Of a stretch of DNA of 64,000 nt, positions 12,127-26,518 are shown piece after piece. Position numbers and translations under genes: made by a program. The stretch is from a virus (Duplodnaviria > Heunggongvirae > Uroviricota > Caudoviricetes). The notes beneath the pieces were generated by a model, which did no database searches, was not told the DNA's origin, and worked only from the letters and a program-made list of their open reading frames with translations. Within the stretch, counting starts at the first letter, position 1. Every line of letters begins with the position of its first letter. The stretch lies in IMG/VR virus record IMGVR_UViG_2925891887_000001. One strand, written 5' to 3'.

Positions 12127-12143
12127 ACAAGGATTTTTTGAAC

Positions 12144-15100
12144 ATGGAACAGTTCAAGAAGAAAAAGCTACCGCTGTTTATTGCCGGTGCGGGTGGTAAA
12201 AAAAGCAGCAAAAGCTCTAGTCGTACACCGGTTGAAGCCGACGATACCGTAAATTCTCGTGCAATGGCCGCTATCCTCGATCTTCTTGGGGAAGGGGTAA
12301 TTGGCGGCTTAGTAAATGGCGCAAGATCTATTTTTATCGACGATCTGCCGATTGTAAATGAAGACGGTTCCTCCAACTTCAGCGGAATCACATGGGATTT
12401 TCGCGACGGTTCACAAGACCAGACTCCAATGTCTGGCTTTGATTTCGTTGAAACGCCTAAATCCGTCAATATCCAGTTAAAAAAAACACATTATGTAACG
12501 GTTTCAATCGATAACGATGAAGCTGATCGGGTTCGTGTCATCATGAAGTTTCCTTCTTTGCGAAGCATAGATAAAAAAACTGGTGACACGAACGGTACGA
12601 CTGTTGAGTACAAGTTCCAGATAGCAAATGGCGACTCAACATTTGTAGATGTGGTCGCGGAAGGTGAAAAAAGCGTTGGCATTAAGCTAACAGCAAAGAA
12701 GACCGGCGTTTATTACCGTAGCTACGAGCTGAAGCTGCCTAAGCCTGGACGCGCATACAAGGTTCGTGTAGTCCGTATTACCGATGATAACAGTAGCCAG
12801 TATCTCTATAACGATACATGGGTGGATTCAATCGGGGAAATTGTCGATACACCGATGAACTATCCAAACTCTGTTTTGGTTGGATTGAAGGTAAACTCTG
12901 AGCAATTCGGCAGCACCATGCCATCTCGCTCTTATCTGGTGCGTGGCCTAAAAATTCGAGTACCTTCAAACTATAACGAGTCCAGTAACACTTACGCTGG
13001 GGTATGGGATGGCACTTTTAAGCTGTTGTCTTCTTCGAACCCCGCGTGGATTCTCTTTGATTTGCTGACCAATGCTCGATATGGCCTTGGTCAGTATGTG
13101 TCGGAATCTATGATTGACCTTGGCCAGTTGTACCAGATTGGTCGATATTGTGACGAAGAGGTCGATGATGGCTTTGGTGGCAAAGAGAAACGCTTTGCAA
13201 TCAATACGCAGATCACCAGTCGACAGGACGCATACCGGCTAATTCAGGATATTGCCGGAGCATTCCGCGGCATGGTGTTTTGGGCTGGTGGGATGGTTAA
13301 CATCATGCAGGATAGCCCATCAGATCCGGTAATGATGTTTACCAACTCTAACGTCAAAGATGGATTGTTTACCTATAAAGGTTCTGCGCGTAAAGATCGC
13401 CCATCCGTTGCGCTCGTAACCTACAACAACAAGGAGGACGGTTATAAGCAAAACATCGAGTACGTCGAAGATCAGGACGCAATGCGCCGTTATGGTGAGC
13501 GTAAAACAGAAGTCGTAGCATTTGGCTGTACAAGCCGAGGGCAGGCTCACCGAGTTGGTTTGTGGCTTTTATATACCGCCAGAATGGAGTCGGATGTAAT
13601 TACATTTACTGCCGGCTTAGACGCGTCATTTCTGATGCCTGGTGAAACCGTTCTGATTCAGAACAAATATCGCGCAGGCAAACGTAACTCAGGTCGAATT
13701 GTGGCGTTTACCAAAAACAGCGTCACACTCGATGCGCCTGTGTCGTTAGCCAAAGGCGGCTGCTTTATTCGAATACTGAATCAGGAAGGCAAAATCGTTG
13801 AACGCGATGTTCTTGAAACTGGCGAAAATATAACAAAAGTTACGTTTTCAAAAGCCCTGTCTTCGGCTGAAACGCCTGTTTTGAACGGCGTCTGGACTAT
13901 TACAGAACCAGACCTCGAACCTATGCGCGTTCGCATCGTTAACATCGCGCAGGGGGAAACGCCGGGTAGCTTTGACATCACCGCTGTTGAGAACAATCCG
14001 TCTAAATATGAGGCAATCGACAATGGTGCAACGCTGATCCCACAGAATACGACGGTATTGGACCCAACTTACTCCAAGCCATCTAATCTGCAAATCACTG
14101 AAGGGACTTATCTCTCAAGCCCGGGCAACCTGTCAGTAAAACTGACTGCAACATGGGAAGGGAAATCTCCAGAGTATTGGATCAGTTGGCGACGTTCTGA
14201 TGAAAACAATGTATCGAACTGGCAATCGGCGCGTGTAACCGAAGAGCAATACGAAATCGTTAATGTCGCGGAGAATGGACGCTACGACTTCCAGCTGTAT
14301 GCGGTTTCATTCAACGGTAAAAAAACAGAGATTATCAGTACCGTTTATCAGGTGTTGGGCACAATGACACCGCCGGATGCCCCAACGTCATTAACGGCCG
14401 TTGGAGACTATCGTAATGTGATACTGAATTGGGTTAATCCAGATTCGGTAGACCTTGATCACATTAATGTTTACGCATCCCAGACCAACAATCTGGATAC
14501 GGCGAAACTGATCGCAGAGTCTGCAAGCACCACCTTTACACATGCTGGTCTTGGGGATAGCGAAACGTGGTATTACTGGGTTCGAGCATCGAACAAGCGA
14601 GGTATGTTAAGTCCTCCGAACTCAAACTTGGGTACAGAGGCGACAACTCGCGATGTACTGTCGTTCCTGACTGGCAAAATTACATCTTCCGAGCTTGGTC
14701 AGGCTCTGCTTGAGGACATCAACAGCAAAGCCTCTCAAGAAGCAGTTGACGAGTTAAATGAGCATATCAACCAGAGCGTCGAATCTTTGGAGGGGGCGGT
14801 AAACGACGTTAAGGAAGATATAGCTGAATTAGATAAGCAGTTCAGCGATAACCTCGCGGATTTTGAAATAAAATTCAACGAGCGTAGCGATGCTTTGGAG
14901 AACGCACAAACCGAGCTTAAAGGTGAGGTTTCGGCAACGATCGACAAGGTCAATGAAGCGTTTGAAAAAATTGATGCTACTGATGCTGCAATTGTTGAAA
15001 TCGAAAACACCGTATCTGAACACGATAAAGCTCTCGCTAATACAGTCGAGGCAATAAAGGCTGCAAGAGATGAAGCGGCGGCTCTTATTGCTAAGGAAAG

Positions 15101-16871
15101 CGAGGCTCGTGTTGAAGGCGATGCTGCAAACGCTAAACAACTGGAAGTGTTGCAGTCAACGGTAGAGGAAAGCTCCGCTGCCGTTGAAGAAATGAAAAAG
15201 ACGGTTGCAGAGGTCGATCGTGCCAGTGCAGAACTGACTACGAACATTGAAGCGTTAGCTAAAACAAATATTGACCTGGCTCTTCGTCAAGATGAAGACC
15301 AGCACAAGCAGATGGTCAATAACGCGAAGATCGCAACAACACAGAAAACCTTTGCTGATGATATGTCCGCAATGGCCACGAAGGTTGAGGAAATTCGCGT
15401 AGAAATTGGCGAAGACATTAAGGCCAGTATTCTGGAAGAGTCCACCGCTCGTGCCGATGGCGATGAAGCGTTGGCAAAGCGTGTCACTCAGCTGCAATCT
15501 AAGTTTGAAGGAGATATCAGCGCGGCGATTAGTACAGAGCAGGAGGCTCGTACATCTGCCGATGAAGCTCTGACGACACAAATCACTCAGCTTGAGTCGA
15601 AAGTAAGCAACGATATCGTCGCAGCTATTAAGGAAGAGCAAGAAGCCCGAGCAACGGAAGATTCGGCTCTGGCAAGCCAGATCACCCAACTTCAGGCAAA
15701 AGTTGATGATGATATTTCTGCTGCAATACGCAGTGAGCAGGAGGCCCGAGCAAGCGGGGACTCTGCGTTAGCCAAACAAATAAACCAGCTTCAGTCAAAG
15801 GTTGACGGTGATATATCCGCTGCCATCACTCAGGAGCAGGAGGCCAGAGCAAGTGCTGACCAGGCGCTCTCACGAGAAATTAACAGCCTGCGAGCACAAA
15901 CCGGAACTGATATTGCCGCAGCGGTTGCTGTAGAGACAAAAGCAAGGACTGATGCCGATAGTGCATTGTCTACCCAGATTACGTCTCTTACAGCAAAAGC
16001 TAATGATCTCAAGGCGTCTCTTGCCAGAGAAACAACGGCTCGTGCAGATGGTGATACCGCTTTAACAAAAGAGGTTTCAAGTTTAAAAGCACAGACAGCG
16101 AAAGATATTAGTGCGGCCGTTGCAGTTGAAACGCAGGCTCGAACTGATGCTGACTCGGCGTTGTCGTCTCAGATCACCAAGCTGACCTCTCAATACAAAG
16201 AGGATATTAAAGCGGCTGTAGCAACCGAAACGAAAACGCGTACAGAGCAAGATGCTGCATTGGCGACTCAAATCACAAACTTAGAGTCTCAAACGGCAGC
16301 CAACATTTCCGCGGCGGTCACAACTGAAACGAAAGCGAGAACGCAGGCAGATAATGCTCTGAGTGGGCGAATCGATACTCTGAAAGCAGAGGTGAATGGA
16401 AATACCGCGACAATTCAACAGCAGGCAACAGCTATTGCTGATACCAACAAAAAAGTGTCAACCGCGTGGACGTTGAAAATGGAGACTTCAACGAGCGGAG
16501 GGCAGAAGTATGTTGCCGGTATTGCGCTTGGTATTGACACCACTGGGCTATCTCAGTTTTTGGTTCAGGCGGACAGGTTTGGTTTGGTCAACTCTGTTAA
16601 CGGGAAGATCACAACGCCATTTGTTATCGAAAACAGTATCGCCTATATGAATGGAGCGTATATCAAGGATGGCACAATCACCAATGCAAAAGTAGGCGAT
16701 CTGCAATCTACCAATTTTGTTAGCGGTAGATCTGGATGGCGGTTCGGCAAAAATGGAACGCTTGAGATCAACGGTAATAGCGGCGGCAATGGGCGATTGG
16801 TTATAAATGGTCAGCGGATTGACGTTTATGACGATAACAACGTCCTACGAGTAAGAATTGGCCGTCTGTGA
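12144..16871 (+). CDS. tail tip/host specificity protein J-like with long coiled-coil repeat shaft
   Basis: about 1575 aa; N-terminal region with gpJ-like features, then about 12 in-frame 31-32 aa repeats, C-terminal distal domain. Confidence 0.8.
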   Translation: MEQFKKKKLPLFIAGAGGKKSSKSSSRTPVEADDTVNSRAMAAILDLLGEGVIGGLVNGARSIFIDDLPIVNEDGSSNFSGITWDFRDGSQDQTPMSGFDFVETPKSVNIQLKKTHYVTVSIDNDEADRVRVIMKFPSLRSIDKKTGDTNGTTVEYKFQIANGDSTFVDVVAEGEKSVGIKLTAKKTGVYYRSYELKLPKPGRAYKVRVVRITDDNSSQYLYNDTWVDSIGEIVDTPMNYPNSVLVGLKVNSEQFGSTMPSRSYLVRGLKIRVPSNYNESSNTYAGVWDGTFKLLSSSNPAWILFDLLTNARYGLGQYVSESMIDLGQLYQIGRYCDEEVDDGFGGKEKRFAINTQITSRQDAYRLIQDIAGAFRGMVFWAGGMVNIMQDSPSDPVMMFTNSNVKDGLFTYKGSARKDRPSVALVTYNNKEDGYKQNIEYVEDQDAMRRYGERKTEVVAFGCTSRGQAHRVGLWLLYTARMESDVITFTAGLDASFLMPGETVLIQNKYRAGKRNSGRIVAFTKNSVTLDAPVSLAKGGCFIRILNQEGKIVERDVLETGENITKVTFSKALSSAETPVLNGVWTITEPDLEPMRVRIVNIAQGETPGSFDITAVENNPSKYEAIDNGATLIPQNTTVLDPTYSKPSNLQITEGTYLSSPGNLSVKLTATWEGKSPEYWISWRRSDENNVSNWQSARVTEEQYEIVNVAENGRYDFQLYAVSFNGKKTEIISTVYQVLGTMTPPDAPTSLTAVGDYRNVILNWVNPDSVDLDHINVYASQTNNLDTAKLIAESASTTFTHAGLGDSETWYYWVRASNKRGMLSPPNSNLGTEATTRDVLSFLTGKITSSELGQALLEDINSKASQEAVDELNEHINQSVESLEGAVNDVKEDIAELDKQFSDNLADFEIKFNERSDALENAQTELKGEVSATIDKVNEAFEKIDATDAAIVEIENTVSEHDKALANTVEAIKAARDEAAALIAKESEARVEGDAANAKQLEVLQSTVEESSAAVEEMKKTVAEVDRASAELTTNIEALAKTNIDLALRQDEDQHKQMVNNAKIATTQKTFADDMSAMATKVEEIRVEIGEDIKASILEESTARADGDEALAKRVTQLQSKFEGDISAAISTEQEARTSADEALTTQITQLESKVSNDIVAAIKEEQEARATEDSALASQITQLQAKVDDDISAAIRSEQEARASGDSALAKQINQLQSKVDGDISAAITQEQEARASADQALSREINSLRAQTGTDIAAAVAVETKARTDADSALSTQITSLTAKANDLKASLARETTARADGDTALTKEVSSLKAQTAKDISAAVAVETQARTDADSALSSQITKLTSQYKEDIKAAVATETKTRTEQDAALATQITNLESQTAANISAAVTTETKARTQADNALSGRIDTLKAEVNGNTATIQQQATAIADTNKKVSTAWTLKMETSTSGGQKYVAGIALGIDTTGLSQFLVQADRFGLVNSVNGKITTPFVIENSIAYMNGAYIKDGTITNAKVGDLQSTNFVSGRSGWRFGKNGTLEINGNSGGNGRLVINGQRIDVYDDNNVLRVRIGRL
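15440..16390 (+). repeat. in-frame tandem repeat region (about 12 x 31-32 aa units, EQEAR..D.AL..QI.QL.SKV..DISAAI) within the J-like gene
   Basis: Periodic repeat visible in the translation; nucleotide copies are diverged. Confidence 0.6.
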
Positions 16872-16964: not shown

Positions 16965-19900
16965 ATGTGGTACAGGGAAGGTACTATCACATTTACACAG
17001 GGCAGCAATACTCTGGTTGGGGCAGGGACAGCCTGGAACGTAACAGCTAATGGTGTGTTGCCGGGGATGATCGTCATTGGCCCCGACAATAAGCTGTATG
17101 AGATCAAGCGCGTAACCAGTGATACGAACATTGTTCTCTCAGAACCTTATACCGGCGAAACTCAGTCTGAAGTTCCGTGCCGAATCATTACGACCTATGA
17201 AGGCGACTTAACACAGTTTAGCGCGCGCTTTACTGCGCTAATGTCGCGTATGTCGGCTGATTCCAAGTCCATACGCAGTTGGTTGACTGCGCTGGATGAG
17301 GTGACAATCGAGCGTGAAGACGGTACAGAAGTGACCGTTAAGCCGCTAATGCAGATCGTCAACGAGCACAACGAAAACGTTGAGTGGTATAAAAATAACA
17401 CTGACGCGATTGATGCTGCTGGCGACAAAGCTCGTGAGGCGGCGGCCAGTGCTGCCGCAGCAGCAAAAAGCGCCAATGCCGCTGGAGAAAAAGCCTCTCA
17501 AGCGTCTCAAAGTGCATCCGCTGCGGCATCCTCACAAAGTGCCGCAAGTGCGAGTGCAACTGCTGCGAAAAAATCTGAAACGAATGCTGCAGCGTCACAA
17601 AAATCTGCAGCCACTTCTGCATCCACCGCGACCACGAAGGCGTCAGAAGCTGCCACCTCAGCCCGGGATGCGGCGGCCTCAAAAGAGGCAGCGAAATCAT
17701 CAGAAACGAGCGCAGCCTCGAGCGCCAGTAATGCCGCTTCCTCGGCAACGGCGGCAGGAAATTCCGCGAAGGCGGCAAAAACGTCCGAGACGAACGCCAG
17801 GTCTTCTGAAACGGCAGCGGGACAGAGCGCCTCGGCTGCGGCAGGCTCAAAAACAGCGGCTGCGTCGTCTGCCAGTGCCGCGTCAACAAGTGCCGGGCAG
17901 GCCTCAGCCAGTGCCACCGCCGCCGGAAAATCGGCAGAAAGTGCCGCATCGTCTGCTTCAACTGCCACAACGAAGGCTGGCCAAGCCACTGAACAGGCCA
18001 GCGCAGCAGCGAGGTCTGCTTCCGCAGCGAAGACATCCGAAACGAACGCGAAAGCGTCGGAAACCCGTGCAGAATCCTCAAAAACGGCAGCCGCATCGTC
18101 CGCCAGTTCGGCGGCGTCATCGGCATCATCGGCGTCTGCTTCAAAAGATGAGGCGACCAGACAGGCGTCAGCAGCGAAGGGCAGCGCCACGACGGCATCC
18201 ACGAAAGCAACAGAGGCGGCAGGCAGTGCGACGGCAGCATCTCAGAGCAAAACTGCTGCTGAATCCGCTGCGACCCGTGCGGAAGCTGCTGCTGATCGTG
18301 CTGAAGAGATTGCCGGTGCAGTTGCGATGGAAGACGCAAGCCTTACAACTAAAGGTGTTGTGAAACTTAGCAGTGCTGTCGACAGCACCAGTGAATCGCT
18401 GGCCGCAACGCCAAAAGCAGTTAAAGCAGCCAATGACAATGCGAATAGCAGGGTGCCATCTAACCGAAAAGTTAACGGTAAAGCACTGACTGCGGATATC
18501 AAATTAACGCCGAAAGATATTGGTACTTTAAATTCAGTAACGATGTCTTTCTCTGGCGGGGCAGGGTGGTTCAAACTGGCTACGGTTACCATGCCACAAG
18601 CGAGTTCCATCGTTTACATCGCATTGATTGGTGGCGCTGGTTACAACGTCGGCTCCCCACATCAGGCAGGCATTTCAGAACTGGTTCTACGAGCAGGCAA
18701 TGGAAACCCCAAAGGGATTACAGGTGCTTTGTGGAAGCGTACAGCTGTCGGATTAACGAATTTCGCCTGGATCAACACATCCGGCGATACATATGATATT
18801 TACGTTGAGATTGGCAATTATGCGACTCGTGTAAATATCCATTGGGATTGTACTGCAAATGCGACAGTTTCTATTTATACCTCGCCAACATATTCAGCGA
18901 GTAAGCCTTCCAGCGTTACCGATGGTGTTGTTTATACGATGTATAGCACACATCAGAAACCGACGCCGTTAGATATTGGAGCACTGCCAACAACCGGAGG
19001 AACAGTTTCAGGTCCGTTGTCTGTTACAGGTGGATTAACTGGTTCATTGAATGGTAATGCAAGTACAGCCACGAAATTGCAGACGGCAAGATCTATCGGT
19101 GGAGTTGTTTTCGACGGTTCTGCAAATATTAACCTTCCAGGTGTAAACACTACGGGTAATCAGAACACCACTGGTAATGCTGCAACTGCTACAAAACTTC
19201 AGACTGCAAGAAAAATATCCGGTGTTCCATTTGATGGTTCTACTGATATCACTTTAACCGCTGCGCATGTTGCCGCTTTCGCAAGAAGGGCAACAGGGTC
19301 ATATGCGGATGCTGATGGTGGCGTGCCGTGGAATGCTGAATCTGGTGCTTACAATGTAACTAGAACAGGCGACACCTATATTCTTGCCAACTTTTATACC
19401 GGTGTAGGTAGTTGCCGGACCCTGCAGATGAAGGCGCATTACAGAAATGGAGGTCTGTTCTACCGTTCCTCAAGAGATGGCTATGGTTTTGAAAGTGGTT
19501 GGGAGCAGGTTTACACGACTGGATTTATGCCTCAGCCGGCTGATATAAACGCGCCAACCGCTGCCGCTGGATGGTTAAATAGTGGTAACGGAACGGCATT
19601 TACGACTGCTCAATTTATAACTTGGCTAAATAATCAGGGGGCATTTACAAACAAACATTGGATCGCACGGTGCTCATGGACTTACGCCAACAATAATTAT
19701 ATAGACGACACTGGTTGCGGTAGGATCGATCTATCTGGTTCCGTGATTGAGGTGTTTAGTAATAAGGCAACAAGCCACTACACTATTCGTGTTACAACGA
19801 CAACAACATCGGGTCATGGTGGTGTTAACAATGCGGAATTTATTTATGTGTACAATGGAAGTGATTATGCACCAGGCTGGCGTCGTTCTTATAACACTAG

Positions 19901-21263
19901 AAACAAACCAACAGCTTCTGATGTAGGAGCATTACCGCTTTCAGGTGGCACATTATCTGGAGGGTTAACATCTTCTGGTGAGATCATTTCAAAATATGCA
20001 AATGGTTTCCGCATTGCTTACGGTAAGTTTGGGTTCTTTATCCGTAATGATGGGGTGAACACATATTTCCTGCTAACAGCATCAGGAGACACATTAGGTT
20101 CATGGAACGGTTTGCGACCTATTACAATTAATAATACCAGCGGTGCTGTATCAATTGGTAATGGACTAAATGTGACTGGTGGCGTAAATGGTAGTTTGAA
20201 CGGTAATGCTTCAACAGCTACGAAGTTGCAAACAGCGAGAAACATCAATGGTGTTAAGTTTGATGGTTCAGGCGATATCAATATTAATACATTGGTATCT
20301 CGTGGCCGAGTTACGGCGTTAAGCGGCTCTACTCAAGGCACTGCTGGCATTCAAATGTATGAGGCGTACAACAATAGCTACCCGACCACGTATGGCAACG
20401 TATTGCACATGAAAGGTGCGAGTGCTGCTGGTGAGGGCGAGTTGCTTATTGGCTGGAGTGGTACGAGCGGTGCACATGCGCCAGTTTTCATTCGCTCACG
20501 AAGAGATAACACAGGTGCAGCATGGTCAGCGTGGGCGCAGGTATATACCGCTAAGGATTCAATCCCTGGTGTGAATACAACTGGTAATCAGAACACTACT
20601 GGTAATGCCGCAACCGCCACAAAATTGCAGACAGCAAGGAAAATTGCTGGTGTGGCGTTTGATGGCTCTGCCGATATAACTTTGACTGCGGCTAACCTTA
20701 ATGCTTACACGAAAACAGAGGTAGCAAACCTTCTAAGTTCCTATGCAAGCAGATCATCACTGACAGGCTATAGTGGCAACCTGGATATTGTTGCTGAAAC
20801 ACTGGTTGTCAAATCAGGCGGTAGTGGAGGGTTTGCTATATGGGATATTGGCACAACTACTAGCGGTGCCAATATGTACATTGATCCAAACCCAGGTATC
20901 AATACAGTTTGGCGTTCAACGTCTTCAAGGCGCTATAAAAAGGATATTGAAACATTACAAGATCGATATGCTGATGAACTTTTGTCATTAAGACCTGTTT
21001 GGTATCGTTCAATTTGTCGAGGTGACCGAAAGGATTGGGGGTATTACGGCCTTATTGCTGAAGAGGTTGGTGAGATTGCCCCGCAATATGTCCATTGGCG
21101 TGAACCAACAAATAATGATTCTCCAGAAGATATTTCCTCAAATGGTATGGTCGCTGAAGGAGTGATGTATGAGCGTTTGGTTGTACCACTCATTTATCAT
21201 ATTCAGCAATTGACCAAAAGGGTTGAGGAGCTTGAAACGAAGTTAAATTCACCTAAAGAATAA
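16965..21263 (+). CDS. tail fibre protein with Ala/Ser-rich low-complexity region, four phage-fibre repeat modules and C-terminal S74-type intramolecular chaperone domain
   Basis: AAGGAG RBS; repeated ATKLQTAR.I.GV.FDGS.DI.L modules; C-terminal segment containing SRRYKKDIE typical of the auto-cleaving chaperone domain. Confidence 0.85.
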   Translation: MWYREGTITFTQGSNTLVGAGTAWNVTANGVLPGMIVIGPDNKLYEIKRVTSDTNIVLSEPYTGETQSEVPCRIITTYEGDLTQFSARFTALMSRMSADSKSIRSWLTALDEVTIEREDGTEVTVKPLMQIVNEHNENVEWYKNNTDAIDAAGDKAREAAASAAAAAKSANAAGEKASQASQSASAAASSQSAASASATAAKKSETNAAASQKSAATSASTATTKASEAATSARDAAASKEAAKSSETSAASSASNAASSATAAGNSAKAAKTSETNARSSETAAGQSASAAAGSKTAAASSASAASTSAGQASASATAAGKSAESAASSASTATTKAGQATEQASAAARSASAAKTSETNAKASETRAESSKTAAASSASSAASSASSASASKDEATRQASAAKGSATTASTKATEAAGSATAASQSKTAAESAATRAEAAADRAEEIAGAVAMEDASLTTKGVVKLSSAVDSTSESLAATPKAVKAANDNANSRVPSNRKVNGKALTADIKLTPKDIGTLNSVTMSFSGGAGWFKLATVTMPQASSIVYIALIGGAGYNVGSPHQAGISELVLRAGNGNPKGITGALWKRTAVGLTNFAWINTSGDTYDIYVEIGNYATRVNIHWDCTANATVSIYTSPTYSASKPSSVTDGVVYTMYSTHQKPTPLDIGALPTTGGTVSGPLSVTGGLTGSLNGNASTATKLQTARSIGGVVFDGSANINLPGVNTTGNQNTTGNAATATKLQTARKISGVPFDGSTDITLTAAHVAAFARRATGSYADADGGVPWNAESGAYNVTRTGDTYILANFYTGVGSCRTLQMKAHYRNGGLFYRSSRDGYGFESGWEQVYTTGFMPQPADINAPTAAAGWLNSGNGTAFTTAQFITWLNNQGAFTNKHWIARCSWTYANNNYIDDTGCGRIDLSGSVIEVFSNKATSHYTIRVTTTTTSGHGGVNNAEFIYVYNGSDYAPGWRRSYNTRNKPTASDVGALPLSGGTLSGGLTSSGEIISKYANGFRIAYGKFGFFIRNDGVNTYFLLTASGDTLGSWNGLRPITINNTSGAVSIGNGLNVTGGVNGSLNGNASTATKLQTARNINGVKFDGSGDININTLVSRGRVTALSGSTQGTAGIQMYEAYNNSYPTTYGNVLHMKGASAAGEGELLIGWSGTSGAHAPVFIRSRRDNTGAAWSAWAQVYTAKDSIPGVNTTGNQNTTGNAATATKLQTARKIAGVAFDGSADITLTAANLNAYTKTEVANLLSSYASRSSLTGYSGNLDIVAETLVVKSGGSGGFAIWDIGTTTSGANMYIDPNPGINTVWRSTSSRRYKKDIETLQDRYADELLSLRPVWYRSICRGDRKDWGYYGLIAEEVGEIAPQYVHWREPTNNDSPEDISSNGMVAEGVMYERLVVPLIYHIQQLTKRVEELETKLNSPKE

Positions 21264-21323: not shown

Positions 21324-21578
21324 ATGAGCTATGGTGCACAGGTTTGGTCGCCATCAAGACAGGAGATGGTCAATGCGTTGGCCCCTGTTTATTACCTCGA
21401 TTATTTTACTCCCTCTGGTTCAGGAAGTAGAACATATGAGGTTGAGGCGGGATTGGGAATCGACTATTACATAATGGACGTAACCAATGGAAAGTACACA
21501 AGTCTTACGGTTTCTGGAAATACCATTTCGTGGTCTGGAGCTAGTGGTAATTTAAACATATTGGTTTTTCAAAAATAA
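21324..21578 (+). CDS. hypothetical protein (tail fibre-associated)
   Basis: 84-aa ORF after the tail fibre gene; lower GC than flanking genes. Confidence 0.5.
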   Translation: MSYGAQVWSPSRQEMVNALAPVYYLDYFTPSGSGSRTYEVEAGLGIDYYIMDVTNGKYTSLTVSGNTISWSGASGNLNILVFQK

Positions 21579-22186
21579 TGTACGGAAGCAAGATATATCG
21601 ATCTGACGGGAAGGTCTGGATGTCTCCTTCTTTGTCTCCTATCGTTTTTCAGAGAAAGCAGGTTGTTTCTTTGTCCGGCGGGACAGAGTTTAACACCAAA
21701 ATATCTCCAGATCGTTCACCGATTATTTTTGTTGCCTATTCGAAAGCTGTTTCATTAATAGCCAACAGAATAGTGCGTAACAACCAGGTGATTTACAGTT
21801 TCGGAGGTCAGGGTAGCGACTCTAGTGCCACGATATACGTATTTTCGAAAGGTATAGCCAAAAAAGAAACTTGGGGCATGAGTTTTTTCAATGCACAAGG
21901 GGAGGAAATCTATAATACGGCAAATATCCCACTTTCATTTACCTTTCTTAATAATACGGAGTGGAACAGCTCTGGAGGGCATGTTTTTGATTACCCTCCA
22001 GCGATAATCCCAACATATGCGAATGTGTTCGCTGTTCCAGTACCGGGCGGAGCCATGACAATGGTTTATGGATATGCGGCATATGGAAATACTGTTAGCT
22101 CGATATTCGTAAACCAACTTAATGGCGGCCATAGTTTTAGCGTAAATGGCAGAGTACCGGTAATAAATAGAAATCTGTATAACTGA
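21578..22186 (+). CDS. hypothetical protein (tail fibre-associated)
   Basis: 202-aa ORF with start/stop overlap to the upstream gene. Confidence 0.5.
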   Translation: MYGSKIYRSDGKVWMSPSLSPIVFQRKQVVSLSGGTEFNTKISPDRSPIIFVAYSKAVSLIANRIVRNNQVIYSFGGQGSDSSATIYVFSKGIAKKETWGMSFFNAQGEEIYNTANIPLSFTFLNNTEWNSSGGHVFDYPPAIIPTYANVFAVPVPGGAMTMVYGYAAYGNTVSSIFVNQLNGGHSFSVNGRVPVINRNLYN

Positions 22187-22193
22187 TGAGTAG

Positions 22194-22427
22194 ATGATGA
22201 AAAGATTATTTCTAACAATAGCTGTTGTTCTCTCTCTTACTGGCTGCCAGAAATTGCCGACACCTATATGTTACGGTGAGGCTATCATTGGTGGACAGGA
22301 GACAGTCATACCCATATATGCTGTTAAAAAAGTGAACGACTATACCTTATACAAAGCGGGTAGCATCTATAACTGGCGATGGGTAGGAGTAGGTGCTTTC
22401 TCATCAGTCCGTTGCAATGCTGAATGA
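22194..22427 (+). CDS. small lipoprotein, candidate Cor-like superinfection exclusion protein
   Basis: Signal peptide with lipobox LTGC; 77 aa; located between tail fibre genes and the lysis cassette. Confidence 0.45.
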   Translation: MMKRLFLTIAVVLSLTGCQKLPTPICYGEAIIGGQETVIPIYAVKKVNDYTLYKAGSIYNWRWVGVGAFSSVRCNAE

Positions 22428-22508
22428 TAGGTAAGTACACACCTACAACAAAAGGGTGAAATGTGATATAAATCCGCCATCCCGATTTGACTTTTCATGG
22501 AGGAAAAC

Positions 22509-22832
22509 ATGTCGAACGAGATGGCGGGCGTTACAACAGAGCAAGTTGAGCGTATTGCCGCGATCGTTGCTCGGGAGGTTGTTGGCAAATTAGGTAAAGA
22601 GCTACGTGAAGAAATTGGCCAGGAGGTCAACGATCAGCTGAAAACCTACTTTGGTGATATGACCCCGGCGCAACATAGTATTCAACACTCCAACCTGGAC
22701 AAACTCCTTAACCGGTTAGATTCCATCTCAAGTGGGTTCTTTGGCGGCATTGTTTCTAAAATAACGTCGTTCATTATTACCGCACTGCTTTTGGGGTTAG
22801 CCGCGTATGGCGTAAAAAATGGACTGCAATAA
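22509..22832 (+). CDS. membrane protein, holin candidate
   Basis: GGAGG RBS; single C-terminal hydrophobic helix; first gene of the putative lysis cassette. Confidence 0.4.
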   Translation: MSNEMAGVTTEQVERIAAIVAREVVGKLGKELREEIGQEVNDQLKTYFGDMTPAQHSIQHSNLDKLLNRLDSISSGFFGGIVSKITSFIITALLLGLAAYGVKNGLQ

Positions 22833-22845
22833 CAGGAGATCAAGG

Positions 22846-23538
22846 ATGAAGACTCCGAGAGGTATTCGTAATAATAACCCCGGTAATCTTGATAAAGGAT
22901 CACCGTGGCAAGGTCTGGTTGCGAATCCAGACGAACCGCGCTTTTGCACGTTTAAAGACCCTGTTTGGGGGATTCGTGCACTGGCGGTGACTCTAATTAC
23001 CTACCACGACAAGCGTCGCGCAAAAGACGGCTCAAGTATCGATACCATTCGTGAAGTTATTGAACGTTGGGCACCGCCGAATGAAAACAACACTGACGCC
23101 TACATTAATGAGGTGTCTAAAGCCGTTGGTGTAACCGCAGACATGATTATCGATCTGCATGATTACGACATTCTTCGACCTTTGGTTGAGGCAATCATTC
23201 GCCATGAGAATGGGCGAGGTCCGCTAAAAACGCTGAACACCTGGTATGCGGCAGAAGTTATTGAGGAAGGTCTGCGTCGAGCTGGCGTCGTTAAGCCGGT
23301 GAAAACCGTGAAGGCTGTTCCTGTAACTAAAGAAACAGCAGGCGCAACTGTTACAGCAGGTATTGGTCTGGCGCAGCTGGCCGATGTTATGCCGCAGGTT
23401 TCCGCTGCTATGGATAAAGCACAAGGTCATATCTCTAGCGGGGATACAGTACGCATCATCTTCGGTATTGCCACTATTGTTGTGGCTGGATTTATCGCCT
23501 GGTCGCAGGTAAGAAGACACCAGAAAGGGATGGTCTAA
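22846..23538 (+). CDS. lysis cassette protein, candidate endolysin with C-terminal membrane anchor
   Basis: CAGGAG RBS; conserved-looking RGIRNNNPGN N-terminal motif; sits between holin candidate and spanins; C-terminal hydrophobic helix. Confidence 0.35.
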   Translation: MKTPRGIRNNNPGNLDKGSPWQGLVANPDEPRFCTFKDPVWGIRALAVTLITYHDKRRAKDGSSIDTIREVIERWAPPNENNTDAYINEVSKAVGVTADMIIDLHDYDILRPLVEAIIRHENGRGPLKTLNTWYAAEVIEEGLRRAGVVKPVKTVKAVPVTKETAGATVTAGIGLAQLADVMPQVSAAMDKAQGHISSGDTVRIIFGIATIVVAGFIAWSQVRRHQKGMV

Positions 23539-23539
23539 T

Positions 23540-23791
23540 ATGCTAGGCAGCCTGATGACAAAGCTAAAAGTTGCTTTGATTACGCTGGCTGCCGTTCTTT
23601 TCGTTCTGGTCGGCGCTTACACGATGGGCGGAAATGCGGCGCGACGAGCAATGGAAGAGAAGGCAAAACAGGAAGACAGAAAACGACTTCAAAGCACAGT
23701 GGATGTCAAAAATGAAACGGTTAATGAAGTGCGGCAAAAAGATGCCTCTGGTGTTCATCGCGAGCTGTTTGATAAATGGGTGCGTGATTAA
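23540..23791 (+). CDS. i-spanin (Rz-like)
   Basis: N-terminal transmembrane anchor followed by a charged helical periplasmic region; an o-spanin candidate is embedded in the +1 frame. Confidence 0.6.
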   Translation: MLGSLMTKLKVALITLAAVLFVLVGAYTMGGNAARRAMEEKAKQEDRKRLQSTVDVKNETVNEVRQKDASGVHRELFDKWVRD

Positions 23792-23939
23792 GACGCAGGC
23801 TCCAGGCGTGCTATTCTGCGATGCTGCAAATCCTATCTATGTGAGTAGAGAGGATTTTATGACTGAGGAAACGGAGCGACAGTTGCTTATCCACAATACG
23901 ATAGGTGAAAGGCTGTGTGAGTGGGGGCACCTGAACTGA
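23703..23939 (+). CDS. o-spanin (Rz1-like lipoprotein), partly nested in the i-spanin gene
   Basis: Short signal peptide with lipobox (FIASC) in an ORF that begins inside the i-spanin gene in another frame; start uncertain (ATG 23703 or 23712). Confidence 0.5.
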   Translation: MSKMKRLMKCGKKMPLVFIASCLINGCVIKTQAPGVLFCDAANPIYVSREDFMTEETERQLLIHNTIGERLCEWGHLN

Positions 23940-24163: not shown

Positions 24164-24583
24164 ATGCTAAATTATCATGACAATACGCGTTCTATGCAGA
24201 CGATCCGCACCAATACTGCGGTCATCGACAGCTTTCCTATGCGTATTCACAACAGTGAAGACGCAGTAGAAGTGCGACGTATGTTGTGCCGTGAATCAGC
24301 TAACCGCCAGCACTTCATCGTCACTTTTAAGAGCGATGTGGCGCGTGCCGAAAAGATCTCTAATTCTACGTCACTGGTTAAACCGTTGGCCGAGGTTGTC
24401 GCTAACGGTAAACGAACCTCTTTTGTTTTAGATGTTGCTGAACAATATCCTGACTTGAAGTGTTTAGATCGTGATATTTCTTCACGAATCAAACAAGTTG
24501 TAGAGTCTTTTATGAAGAAATTCTGTAAAATCGATGATATGGAACCATCAACGGCACAGAATACTTCATGGCACCATCTCTAA
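24164..24583 (+). CDS. hypothetical protein
   Basis: 139-aa ORF, first gene after a 220-bp non-coding gap following the lysis genes. Confidence 0.5.
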   Translation: MLNYHDNTRSMQTIRTNTAVIDSFPMRIHNSEDAVEVRRMLCRESANRQHFIVTFKSDVARAEKISNSTSLVKPLAEVVANGKRTSFVLDVAEQYPDLKCLDRDISSRIKQVVESFMKKFCKIDDMEPSTAQNTSWHHL

Positions 24584-25341
24584 TTGGTCAGGCGAACAGA
24601 TTAATCCCTGAAATAGAAGACTACAGCAAGGTCTTGTCTGAAATGCCGAGAGCGACGAGAATTATCGCTCTCGGTGAGTTCTATTTTATCTCCCGAGGTT
24701 TCGATCTAATTCGATTTACCGAATACGAGCTTGTTGATTCGGCCTATGAACGCTGTATTGTTGGCGAGTGTCTTGAGTCATGTGATCCTGATTACCAAGA
24801 GCAGGAAGTTAAGCGACTCAAACGTGCTGGTTACACACCTCTTGAGATAGGAGCAGAAATTGAATCCTACAAGTTGCATGTGGGGCAGCCAGTCCAAACA
24901 GTCTTCCGCGTGGCCTACTGCGAGTTTCCAATCAAGGATAAATCTGGAGTAAAAGTCAGCGCCAAGCAGATTAGAGGGGTTTTTACTCATGCTGATTATA
25001 TGGGATTAGGCATCGCAAGTTTTGCTTACCTTTATCTCGTAGATAAGTATCAGTACTTGGTTTGCGATACGTTACAGACGGTAAAAGGCGCAACTCTTTG
25101 GGCTGTGAGTATGCGCAAACATGGACTGGTCGAAATTTACGATACGAAGAACGAAAATTTTATAGAGGAATTGGGTGAGGATGCCTGTGGCGTAAGTGGT
25201 TTTATTCCGTGGGATATCGGTAAGTCTGACGGAGGCCAGATGCGAAGACGTGAAGAGTGGGGGACTAATAAAATCAATCTCACCCCAGGTGCTTGTACTC
25301 ATATAGTGAACATTCTGACTAAACGATCTATGAATCAATAA
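24568..25341 (+). CDS. hypothetical protein
   Basis: 257-aa ORF followed by a hairpin plus T-run terminator. Confidence 0.55.
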   Translation: MAPSLIGQANRLIPEIEDYSKVLSEMPRATRIIALGEFYFISRGFDLIRFTEYELVDSAYERCIVGECLESCDPDYQEQEVKRLKRAGYTPLEIGAEIESYKLHVGQPVQTVFRVAYCEFPIKDKSGVKVSAKQIRGVFTHADYMGLGIASFAYLYLVDKYQYLVCDTLQTVKGATLWAVSMRKHGLVEIYDTKNENFIEELGEDACGVSGFIPWDIGKSDGGQMRRREEWGTNKINLTPGACTHIVNILTKRSMNQ

Positions 25342-25490: not shown

Positions 25491-26159
25491 ATGACCAAGA
25501 TCTTTGTGGTTGGCGGCACAAAGGGCGGGCCTGGCAAATCCACCGTTGCCCAGCAAATTGCCGTTTGCCTGAAAGTCAAAAAGAAGAAGAAGGTTTATAT
25601 TACCGATATAGATATTCAGCGCACGACAACGAGCTGGTGTGAAGACCGTCGACAGAACGAAGACCTTGAGCTGATTCCTTTCGCATACGTTCAGGATGAC
25701 ATCATTAAGCACCTAAAATCGCTTCAGGGTAGAGCTGAGTTTGTAGTGGTAGATGCTGGTGGCTTCGACTCCGAAATTCAGCGACAAGCGATGCTGATGG
25801 CTGACGTTATCATTATCCCGCTGCGTCCTAAGCGTCGTGATTTGAAATCTTTACGTGACATCGATCCTATTATCGACAATGTTCGCAATGTAAACGATAA
25901 AGTGAAGGTCCGCGCGGTCATGAACCAGTGCCCGGCTTTGCCATCACAAGTGTCTCGCATTCTGGCGGCTAAAGAGATTGTTGAGACGTTTGGCATCGAG
26001 TCTGCGCCAGTCAATCTATATAACCGCAACGTCTATGATGATGCGGAAGAGTCTGGTCGTTCTATCTTTGAAATGACCGGTAGCGAGCGCGACAAAAAGG
26101 CGGAAGCCGAGTTTGAAGAATTTGTAGATTATCTGTTGAGTCTGGAGGAAGAAGAATAA
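25491..26159 (+). CDS. parA: ParA-family partition ATPase
   Basis: N-terminal deviant Walker A (GGTKGGPGKST), about 220 aa, followed by a small overlapping gene. Confidence 0.75.
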   Translation: MTKIFVVGGTKGGPGKSTVAQQIAVCLKVKKKKKVYITDIDIQRTTTSWCEDRRQNEDLELIPFAYVQDDIIKHLKSLQGRAEFVVVDAGGFDSEIQRQAMLMADVIIIPLRPKRRDLKSLRDIDPIIDNVRNVNDKVKVRAVMNQCPALPSQVSRILAAKEIVETFGIESAPVNLYNRNVYDDAEESGRSIFEMTGSERDKKAEAEFEEFVDYLLSLEEEE

Positions 26160-26518
26160 TGTCCATGAAAATGGGTGACCTAGCAAAGCGCAAAGAGCCT
26201 GATGCACCGGCTAAGAACACAACTCCTTTGCGCCAACCAGTCAGACCACAGGGACGCCCGACTCGTGGCAAAGAGAAAATTAAAAGCCGCACAATGTCAC
26301 TGGAGGACGAATACTTCGAACTGCTGGAGATGATGAAGTTCATCCCTCGCTTCGAGAAGTTCACTCGTTCTGACGTGATTCGTGCTGCTATTTTCCATCT
26401 TGCGGAGAAGACACCGCAGGAAATCGAGGACATCGTGAAACTTAACGAGGCGATCACAGCTGCCGATGTCACGATGCGTACCGATGAAATTAAACGCGAG
26501 TTGATGAAGAAAGGGTGA
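26159..26518 (+). CDS. small partition/centromere-binding protein candidate (ParG-like ribbon-helix-helix)
   Basis: 119 aa, basic N-terminus, RHH-like segment (RTMSLEDEYFELLEMM...SDVIRAAIFHL); start overlaps parA stop. Confidence 0.5.
   Translation: MSMKMGDLAKRKEPDAPAKNTTPLRQPVRPQGRPTRGKEKIKSRTMSLEDEYFELLEMMKFIPRFEKFTRSDVIRAAIFHLAEKTPQEIEDIVKLNEAITAADVTMRTDEIKRELMKKG

Follow-up and report, generated by a model that had tools for sequence, protein, structure and literature searches.

The cor gene and its predicted product

The stretch of DNA analysed here, the whole of which we call the window (64,000 nucleotides; IMG/VR record IMGVR_UViG_2925891887_000001), is that of an SSU5-like phage-plasmid of Escherichia coli. 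It contains a short gene, cor, the product of which, judged from its sequence, is a predicted Cor-family lipoprotein precursor that would be lipidated at Cys18 after cleavage. A preliminary description of the window had placed this gene between the tail fibre and lysis genes. It does lie between tail and lysis genes, but not directly after the tail fibre gene, as genes for proteins of 84 and 202 amino acids (aa) intervene. The features of cor are the following.

22194..22427, plus strand: cor gene, predicted Cor-family exclusion lipoprotein precursor (open reading frame, NF047972, phrog_1119, RefSeq name)
22197..22247, plus strand: predicted lipoprotein signal peptide ending in the lipobox L15-T16-G17-C18 at 22236-22247 (read from the sequence; LPAM_1)
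22269..22415, plus strand: predicted small beta-barrel core of the mature protein, between the invariant Cys26 (22269-22271) and Cys74 (22413-22415)

The open reading frame (ORF) encodes 77 aa when read from the ATG at 22194 and 76 aa from the ATG at 22197, and ends at the TGA stop codon at 22425-22427. The translation of 22194..22427 is MMKRLFLTIAVVLSLTGCQKLPTPICYGEAIIGGQETVIPIYAVKKVNDYTLYKAGSIYNWRWVGVGAFSSVRCNAE, the start of which reads MMKRLFLTIAVVLSLTGCQ; the 77-aa frame with its lipobox LTGC is thus present as first described. The signal peptide consists of a positive n-region (KR), a hydrophobic core and then the lipobox, and reads MMKRLFLTIAVVLSLTG up to the cleavage point, followed by the C that would serve as lipid attachment site (codon 22245-22247). 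Pfam LPAM_1 matches residues 2-19 weakly, at 17.3 bits and just under its cutoff of 20. In E. coli the residue at +2 to the lipidated Cys governs outer-membrane sorting (Lol rule). Because this residue is Gln and not Asp, sorting of Cor to the outer membrane is implied. The frame is intact in all 17 near-identical copies found in IMG/VR, in which nucleotide changes are mostly synonymous and Cys18, Cys26 and Cys74 are unchanged. In three of the 17 the first ATG is replaced by ACG (M1T), and Cor homologues begin with MK(K/R), so that the ATG at 22197 is the likelier start and the true product probably has 76 aa. At three other loci the stop TGA is changed to TGG, which adds one extra Trp before the next in-frame TAG. 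The ORFs that overlap or lie antisense to this region (22367..22630, 22066..22218 and 22324..22440 on the minus strand, and 22456..22593 on the plus strand) found no family support.

That this gene might be Cor-like had been proposed from size and position only, and the proposal is now borne out by homology. The equivalog model NF047972 of NCBIfam ('phage exclusion lipoprotein Cor') matches at positions 1-77 of its 78 with a score of 80.7 bits (cutoff 31; E=5.8e-23), a clearly positive outcome of the comparison of hidden Markov models, and phrog_1119 ('Cor superinfection exclusion protein') matches over the full length (E=2.3e-30, 76 of 78 profile positions), values well outside anything due to chance, while no homology to a tail fibre assembly protein was detected in Pfam, PHROGs or NCBIfam. 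The window Cor is 59% identical to SSU5_025 (57-59%), 58% to the Cor of phi367 (Stx-like podoviruses), 47% to that of HK75/mEp235 and 42% to that of N15 (42-49% for the Cors of N15, HK75 and ES18), and 28% to T1 Cor by direct alignment. Besides the match to a curated model, it has the further traits of the family, namely a lipobox with the +1 Cys, a precursor of about 70-80 aa, two more cysteines and a location beside gp22-like and gp23-like genes of the tail-tip (J) region. In an alignment of 17 family members Cys18, Cys26, Gly56, Phe69 and Cys74 are invariant. An intramolecular disulphide is common to Llp and the Cor family (PMC9586334), and the Cys26/Cys74 pair, which corresponds to it, probably staples the Cor barrel. 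In RefSeq, plasmids with an identical cassette region (e.g. NZ_CP195468.1) carry this gene as 'cor: phage exclusion lipoprotein Cor', and SSU5_025 at the matching position in SSU5 (GenBank JQ965645) is labelled 'putative phage superinfection exclusion protein Cor-like protein'. The window cor is, then, an ordinary, already annotated member of a known family, and as such nothing new. Proteins of this family are phage lipoproteins that inactivate the receptor used by a phage on the cell surface, which bars infected cells to a second infection.

Beyond the SSU5-like elements, the closest relatives of this Cor were found in the Stx-like short-tailed phages phi367, phi419 and Stx2_EH2011. A homologue search returned four proteins, mostly fragments, and an exhaustive search of representatives 18 matches. 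One candidate, P0006 (1087 aa, with 19 stretches matching the query), was discarded as a false positive, since it is the translation of a perfect tandem repeat with a unit of about 56 residues. No related loci of the single Cor protein were found in species-representative genomes, and a tighter Cor alignment used as query recovered only two Kluyvera contigs. The models of known anti-phage defence systems in PADLOC-DB gave no match at E<=0.1 to Cor or to either of its two neighbours.

An AlphaFold2 model was built from a 14-sequence alignment leaving out the N15, T1 and HK75 rows. It has a mean pLDDT (predicted local distance difference test score) of 86.5, reaching 94-96 over residues 21-70, and shows a small barrel of five strands behind a signal helix, so that Cor is predicted to have a small beta-barrel fold like that of Llp. 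The best match in a structure search of BFVD was a Dhillonvirus 'super-infection exclusion protein' (E=7e-5), followed by lipoproteins of T5-like phages. Foldseek of the model against the PDB gave only non-significant Tudor/SH3-like matches, with Llp ranked 23rd. At the sequence level, PDB sequences searched with Cor as single query gave no relevant match and did not include Llp among the matches; a Cor profile detected Llp weakly (8a60_B, E=0.006), over residues 1-45, mostly the signal peptide and first strand. T5 Llp (PDB 8A60, 7QJF) is a small outer-membrane lipoprotein with an intramolecular disulphide, as Cor is predicted to be, and blocks T5's own receptor FhuA from the periplasmic side (PMC9586334). 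The two differ in that their identity is 13-15% and that the Llp gene adjoins the unrelated receptor-binding protein gene pb5, of which no homologue is present here. Cor is thus related to Llp in fold without belonging to its family.

The three-gene cassette and its surroundings

Together with the two genes preceding it, cor forms a cassette in the following setting.

12138..16871, plus strand: central tail fibre/tail-tip protein J, 1577 aa (phrog_31 'central tail fiber J', 1232 bits)
16965..21263, plus strand: side tail fibre, 1432 aa, its gene separating J from the cassette (multiple tail-fibre PHROGs)
21324..21578, plus strand: 84-aa protein, cassette gene 1, putative tail-tip or receptor-binding accessory protein (phrog_557, E=2.4e-24)
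21578..22186, plus strand: 202-aa protein, cassette gene 2, putative receptor-binding protein (phrog_425, E=5.8e-49)
22426, no strand: right boundary of the variable module, within the cor stop codon (its final two bases), where similarity to Cyrano and PhiR41_1 resumes
22497..22832, plus strand: holin, first gene of the lysis block
22819..23538, plus strand: endolysin
23540..23791, plus strand: i-spanin
within 23634..23939, plus strand: overlapping o-spanin ORF

The lysis block is 94% identical to that of phage-plasmid Cyrano (pLF82) and 83% to that of Salmonella phage SSU5, and the 1.3-kb cassette region is 99-100% identical to many E. coli plasmids of 109-112 kb; among 5,426 complete E. coli genomes, 169 have a match to the cassette region and 65 the entire cassette. 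The 84-aa protein is 68% identical to SSU5_023 and homologous to N15 gp22, T1 gp32 and HK022 p24. The 202-aa protein, the stop codon of which lies 7 nt upstream of the first cor ATG, is 76% identical to SSU5_024 and 29% to its homologue in Bas04 (BtuB-type), and is homologous to N15 gp23 and T1 gp31. Neither sequence shows a visible signal peptide, and the inherited names 'outer membrane protein' and 'membrane associated protein' therefore find no support in the sequence. No sequence relatives of these two proteins or of T1 gp31 were found among solved structures. J, the C-terminal 349 aa of which are 99.1% identical to Cyrano J, is presumed to carry the receptor-binding proteins of the cassette.

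The order 84 aa, 202 aa, Cor is that of N15 gp22-gp23-gp24, HK75_21-22-23, T1 gp32-gp31-gp30 and ES18 gp30-31-32, and comparable loci lie downstream of the J homologue in phages of the BASEL collection. Maffei et al. described these as 'bona fide RBP loci', encoding receptor-binding proteins (RBPs) and cognate superinfection exclusion proteins, the allele of which predicts the terminal receptor (PMC8594841). Cor and pair travel as a unit: a window-type cor stands directly 3' of a window-type pair, with constant spacing, in 17 of 17 IMG/VR loci, and an SSU5-type cor follows an SSU5-type pair in eight loci, two of them in Kluyvera genomes. Within the pair proteins, it is the N-termini that are conserved (MYG..DG..W.SP..P). 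In phi367-type phages cor directly follows a 'tail fiber adhesin' gene (L004 5428-6213), and an 84/202-like pair lies 3.2 kb downstream, beside lom; an adhesin gene, SSU5_022, also precedes the SSU5 cassette (L001 10547-12234) and is missing from the window.

Comparison with the individual Cor proteins brings out both likenesses and differences. Those of N15, HK022, HK75, phi80 and ES18 resemble the window protein in length (72-80 aa), lipobox, three invariant cysteines and position as last gene of a tail-tip cassette. The lambdoid and N15-type Cors have, however, a 'G(V/M)LEK' insertion of 3-4 residues after the lipobox that the window Cor lacks, and they are not hosted by a 110-kb SSU5-like phage-plasmid; in the window, unlike in N15-type loci, the side tail fibre gene separates J from the cassette, and the 84- and 202-aa partners branch apart from the FhuA-type pairs of N15-type phages. 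SSU5_025 shares the position between pair and holin, the length and a syntenic phage-plasmid backbone, but differs at more than 40% of its residues, in contrast to the neighbouring holin and endolysin with their 94-96% identity. The Cors of T1 (gp30), Bas03_31, Bas05_25 and Bas16_27 share the family model (55.8-58.4 bits), the cassette and the cysteines, whereas identity to the T1/Dhillonvirus Cors is about 28-34% and cor is there divergent from the pair, not co-oriented as in the window. The small exclusion lipoproteins Bas04_25, Bas06_26, Bas10_24 and Rtp45/Bas01_29 of siphoviruses that target BtuB, YncD or LptD are likewise encoded beside the RBP locus downstream of J. The BtuB-type lipoproteins among these have the lipobox and two-Cys layout of the window Cor, but the BtuB-, YncD- and LptD-type proteins score below the NF047972 cutoff or do not match, and fall as outgroups in the tree described below; Rtp45, moreover, acts by steric clash on LptD and not on a TonB-dependent transporter (PMC12685063).

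Cyrano provides a natural comparison, as it produces virions (PMC9928086) and carries no cassette between tail fibre region and holin. Similarity to Cyrano ends in the tail-fibre gene at about 20745 and resumes at 22426 (blastn: window 22426-23919, 94%); the match to PhiR41_1, which also lacks the cassette and has unrelated genes between J and holin, likewise starts at 22426. Since the C-terminal part of the side fibre from about 20746 is unrelated to that of Cyrano, fibre tip and cor cassette are exchanged together. A search of the whole Cyrano genome gave no match to Cor (best profile score 8.7 bits, vs 111.7 for the window gene), and virion production without Cor, in a phage whose J tip is 99% identical, argues that Cor is accessory rather than structural or an assembly factor. 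Cyrano does encode a single divergent 84/202-like pair (34%/26% identity), CYRAN_88/89, at 81933-82831 (81.9 kb), beside a DUF4942 gene and some 55 kb away, at a site that is empty in the plasmid matching the window; no second cassette copy was found in the window or in the rest of an identical plasmid. The 84/202-type pair thus occurs exactly once per element, at differing loci, which argues for a required, exchangeable tail-tip component.

Within the cassette, cor diverges fastest. Its nonsynonymous divergence (dN) between window and SSU5 reaches 0.365; the 84-aa gene has a dN of 0.258 and the 202-aa gene one of 0.187, compared with values of 0.023 in the holin gene and 0.038 in the endolysin gene. 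Synonymous divergence (dS; window 21324-22427 vs SSU5, L001 11127-12234) is saturated in both cor and the 202-aa gene, whereas the 84-aa gene has a value of 2.7.

Several observations concern the neighbouring genes. The side tail fibre contains a long Ala/Ser-rich low-complexity stretch, at roughly residues 150-440, and four copies of the motif G(N)A(S/A)TATKLQTAR...FDGS. The lysis-gene calls are based on matches to phrog_5093, phrog_873 (endolysin), phrog_1026 and phrog_1275 (Rz-like spanins) and agree with the SSU5 and Cyrano annotations. The endolysin (239 aa) has no Pfam match above threshold, matches only the internal segment 350-572 of the 1277 positions of phrog_873, and is similar to tail-injection transglycosylase and tape-measure lytic domains; the hydrophobic helix at its end, IIFGIATIVVAGFIAWSQV, points to a lysin anchored in the membrane by its C-terminus. 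Farther downstream, where Cyrano has its KacT toxin-antitoxin pair, the window has two ORFs unrelated to it (24164..25341), which match the PHROGs phrog_2594 and phrog_3307 of unknown function, and a ParA partition ATPase (222 aa) from 25491 is directly followed by a 119-aa ORF positionally matching the 'RelE/ParE putative toxin' of Cyrano (25491-26518). Outside the window, plasmid NZ_CP195468.1 (60400-106100) carries a phage-type dihydrofolate reductase labelled 'trimethoprim-resistant dihydrofolate reductase DfrA51' by RefSeq. It lies in a nucleotide-metabolism cluster beside thymidylate synthase and nrdAB, and its Cyrano homologue is annotated simply as dihydrofolate reductase; the plasmid also has copies of metG and apbC.

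Proposed mode of action and time of expression

We consider it quite likely, by comparison with characterised relatives, that the product of cor is the exclusion lipoprotein of its cassette and blocks the phage-plasmid's own terminal receptor. The argument on mechanism proceeds by analogy with the Cor proteins of phi80, N15, HK022 and T1, and with the solved T5 Llp-FhuA complex (PMC9586334). The precursor would be cleaved and lipidated at Cys18, placing mature Cor in the inner leaflet of the outer membrane, where it would fold into its small five-stranded beta-barrel, probably with the Cys26-Cys74 disulphide. It would then bind, on its periplasmic face, the outer-membrane protein serving this phage-plasmid as terminal receptor, and lock it in a state which the phage's receptor-binding proteins (presumed to be the cognate 84- and 202-aa products, borne on the J tail tip) could not use for adsorption or DNA entry. 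A cell in which the element resides or replicates would thereby be closed to superinfection by this phage and by others with the same receptor, and progeny would be spared from being wasted on receptors in the debris of lysed cells.

Some points weigh against this proposal. The mechanism of Cor 'has not yet been elucidated' (bioRxiv 10.64898/2026.03.26.714494), and the exclusion role is inferred throughout the subclade formed by the window, SSU5 and phi367 Cors. Others bear on whether cor would be expressed from the plasmid-prophage: the gene stands at the end of a late tail operon, directly behind the 202-aa gene, and a crude consensus scan found no sigma-70-like promoter or terminator adjoining it, the nearest promoter-like matches (9 of 12 positions) lying at 21232-21261 and 21551-21579. 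Further difficulties, taken up below, concern the receptor.

A late lytic role in protecting progeny, as for Llp, is at least as plausible as lysogenic conversion. It could even be that Cor acts mainly or only during lytic growth, in a 'lytic conversion' like that of T5 Llp, and not as a moron expressed by the prophage. The co-orientation of cor with the late tail genes 7 nt ahead of it, its place directly upstream of the lysis genes, the lack of an adjoining promoter-like or terminator-like site in the scan, and the fact that Llp, the closest solved structural relative, is a lytic-phase protein would all fit. However, the Cors of phi80, N15 and HK022 exclude phages from lysogens, according to literature cited in a preprint (bioRxiv 10.64898/2026.03.26.714494), the promoter scan was crude, and the lytic and lysogenic roles are not mutually exclusive; we hold restriction to lytic growth to be an open contender, though one somewhat short of an even chance.

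The blocked receptor and other readings

If Cor blocks a receptor, the question is which one. As references we used phages with receptors determined experimentally (BASEL S5 Table), namely FhuA for Bas03, Bas05, Bas16 and T1, BtuB for Bas04 and Bas06, YncD for Bas10 and LptD for Bas01. To these were added N15, HK75 and ES18, of which N15 and ES18 have an established dependence on FhuA and HK75 a presumed one, on account of its relatives of the HK022 type. A neighbour-joining tree places the Cors of the window, SSU5 and phi367 as sister group to those of N15, HK75 and ES18, inside a clade holding all Cors of FhuA phages, and the lipoproteins of BtuB, YncD and LptD phages form the outgroups. The NF047972 scores, which set the groups clearly apart, are as follows.

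N15 Cor: 134.5 bits
ES18 Cor: 134.4 bits
Window Cor: 80.7 bits
SSU5 Cor: 77.5 bits
phi367 Cor: 71.5 bits
Bas16 Cor: 58.4 bits
T1 Cor: 55.8 bits
BtuB-type lipoproteins: 18.0 and 19.5 bits
YncD- and LptD-type lipoproteins: no match

On these grounds the ferrichrome transporter FhuA is, by a modest preference, the probable target of the window Cor. The partner proteins point elsewhere. The 84- and 202-aa proteins are 37% and 29% identical to those of Bas04 but 20-27% to FhuA-type pairs, and group distantly (28-37%) with the BtuB-type pairs of Bas04 and Bas06 and those of Cyrano and the Stx phages, on a deep branch of their own. Because Cor groups with the FhuA type and the pair is nearer to the BtuB type, the cassette gives conflicting receptor signals. 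It also counts against the proposal that, in two reports, the lipopolysaccharide outer core, bound by tail fibre gp22, is the sole receptor named for SSU5 (PMC12312913, PMC4138488), and that a literature search found no reported protein receptor for SSU5-like phage-plasmids.

There is accordingly a lesser chance that Cor targets some other protein of the outer membrane, for instance BtuB or yet another TonB-dependent transporter. In its fullest form, this alternative would have a Cor-family exclusion lipoprotein aimed at BtuB or another protein that is not FhuA, matching the distinct specificity of the 84/202-aa pair, a possibility that we hold only tentatively. The best tblastn matches of the 202-aa protein outside SSU5 are tonnikala-like phages, whose close relative Bas04 uses BtuB, and the pair clusters with those of Bas04 and Bas06, not with the FhuA-type pairs. 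Cor, pair and spacing co-vary strictly as a unit, dN of the cassette is 5-15 times that of the neighbouring lysis genes, as would be expected if specificity shifts, and the lipobox and two-Cys layout is common to the lipoproteins of BtuB phages. Yet the window Cor is closer to the Cors of N15, HK75 and ES18 than those are to T1 Cor, and it matches well a model that the BtuB-type lipoproteins fail. Its similarity to these lipoproteins is confined to the signal peptide (with Bas04_25 only 22 residues align, E=5e-5 in a small-database search), and the likeness of the deep-branching pair to BtuB-type pairs is remote. It seems rather unlikely, though not far-fetched, that the window/SSU5/phi367 Cor subclade moved off FhuA together with its own deep-branching receptor-binding pair. 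Were this so, the terminal receptor of SSU5-like elements would be BtuB or another TonB-dependent transporter, and FhuA could no longer be predicted reliably from 'Cor sensu stricto'.

Two further functions for Cor were considered and rejected. That it serves the tail tip or tail fibre in a structural or assembly role, with no part in exclusion, would agree with its tight linkage to tail-tip genes and the spacing constant in all copies, but is very improbable, as the lipoprotein signal peptide directs Cor to the host envelope and not to a cytoplasmic assembly line, no tail-assembly family matches it, Cyrano builds virions without it, and cor lies on the strand opposite the tail genes in T1 and the BASEL FhuA phages. 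Slighter still is the chance that it belongs to the adjacent lysis cassette, as outer-membrane spanin or as another lipoprotein for lysis. Its nature as a small outer-membrane lipoprotein encoded immediately upstream of the holin and a weak match to phrog_456 ('Rz-like spanin', residues 1-24, E=0.39) might suggest this, but that match spans only the signal peptide, a complete i-spanin/o-spanin pair is present at 23540..23939 (phrog_1026 and phrog_1275, E about 1e-25), and the lysis block is kept in Cyrano and PhiR41_1 without cor.

The practical value of these findings is small, as the guess from position and size was right and current NCBI models already name the gene. What modest interest there is lies in which receptor Cor blocks and in the contradictory signals that the cassette gives; the conflict between Cor and its partner proteins is a caution against inferring a receptor from one cassette gene. 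For widespread E. coli phage-plasmids, exclusion by Cor nevertheless leads to a prediction, namely that their terminal receptor is the protein blocked by Cor, most likely FhuA. If FhuA is indeed the target, carriers should resist phages of the T1, T5 and phi80 types and might be altered in the uptake of ferrichrome, albomycin and colicin M, and the prediction would be relevant to host range in phage therapy and to the persistence of these plasmids.

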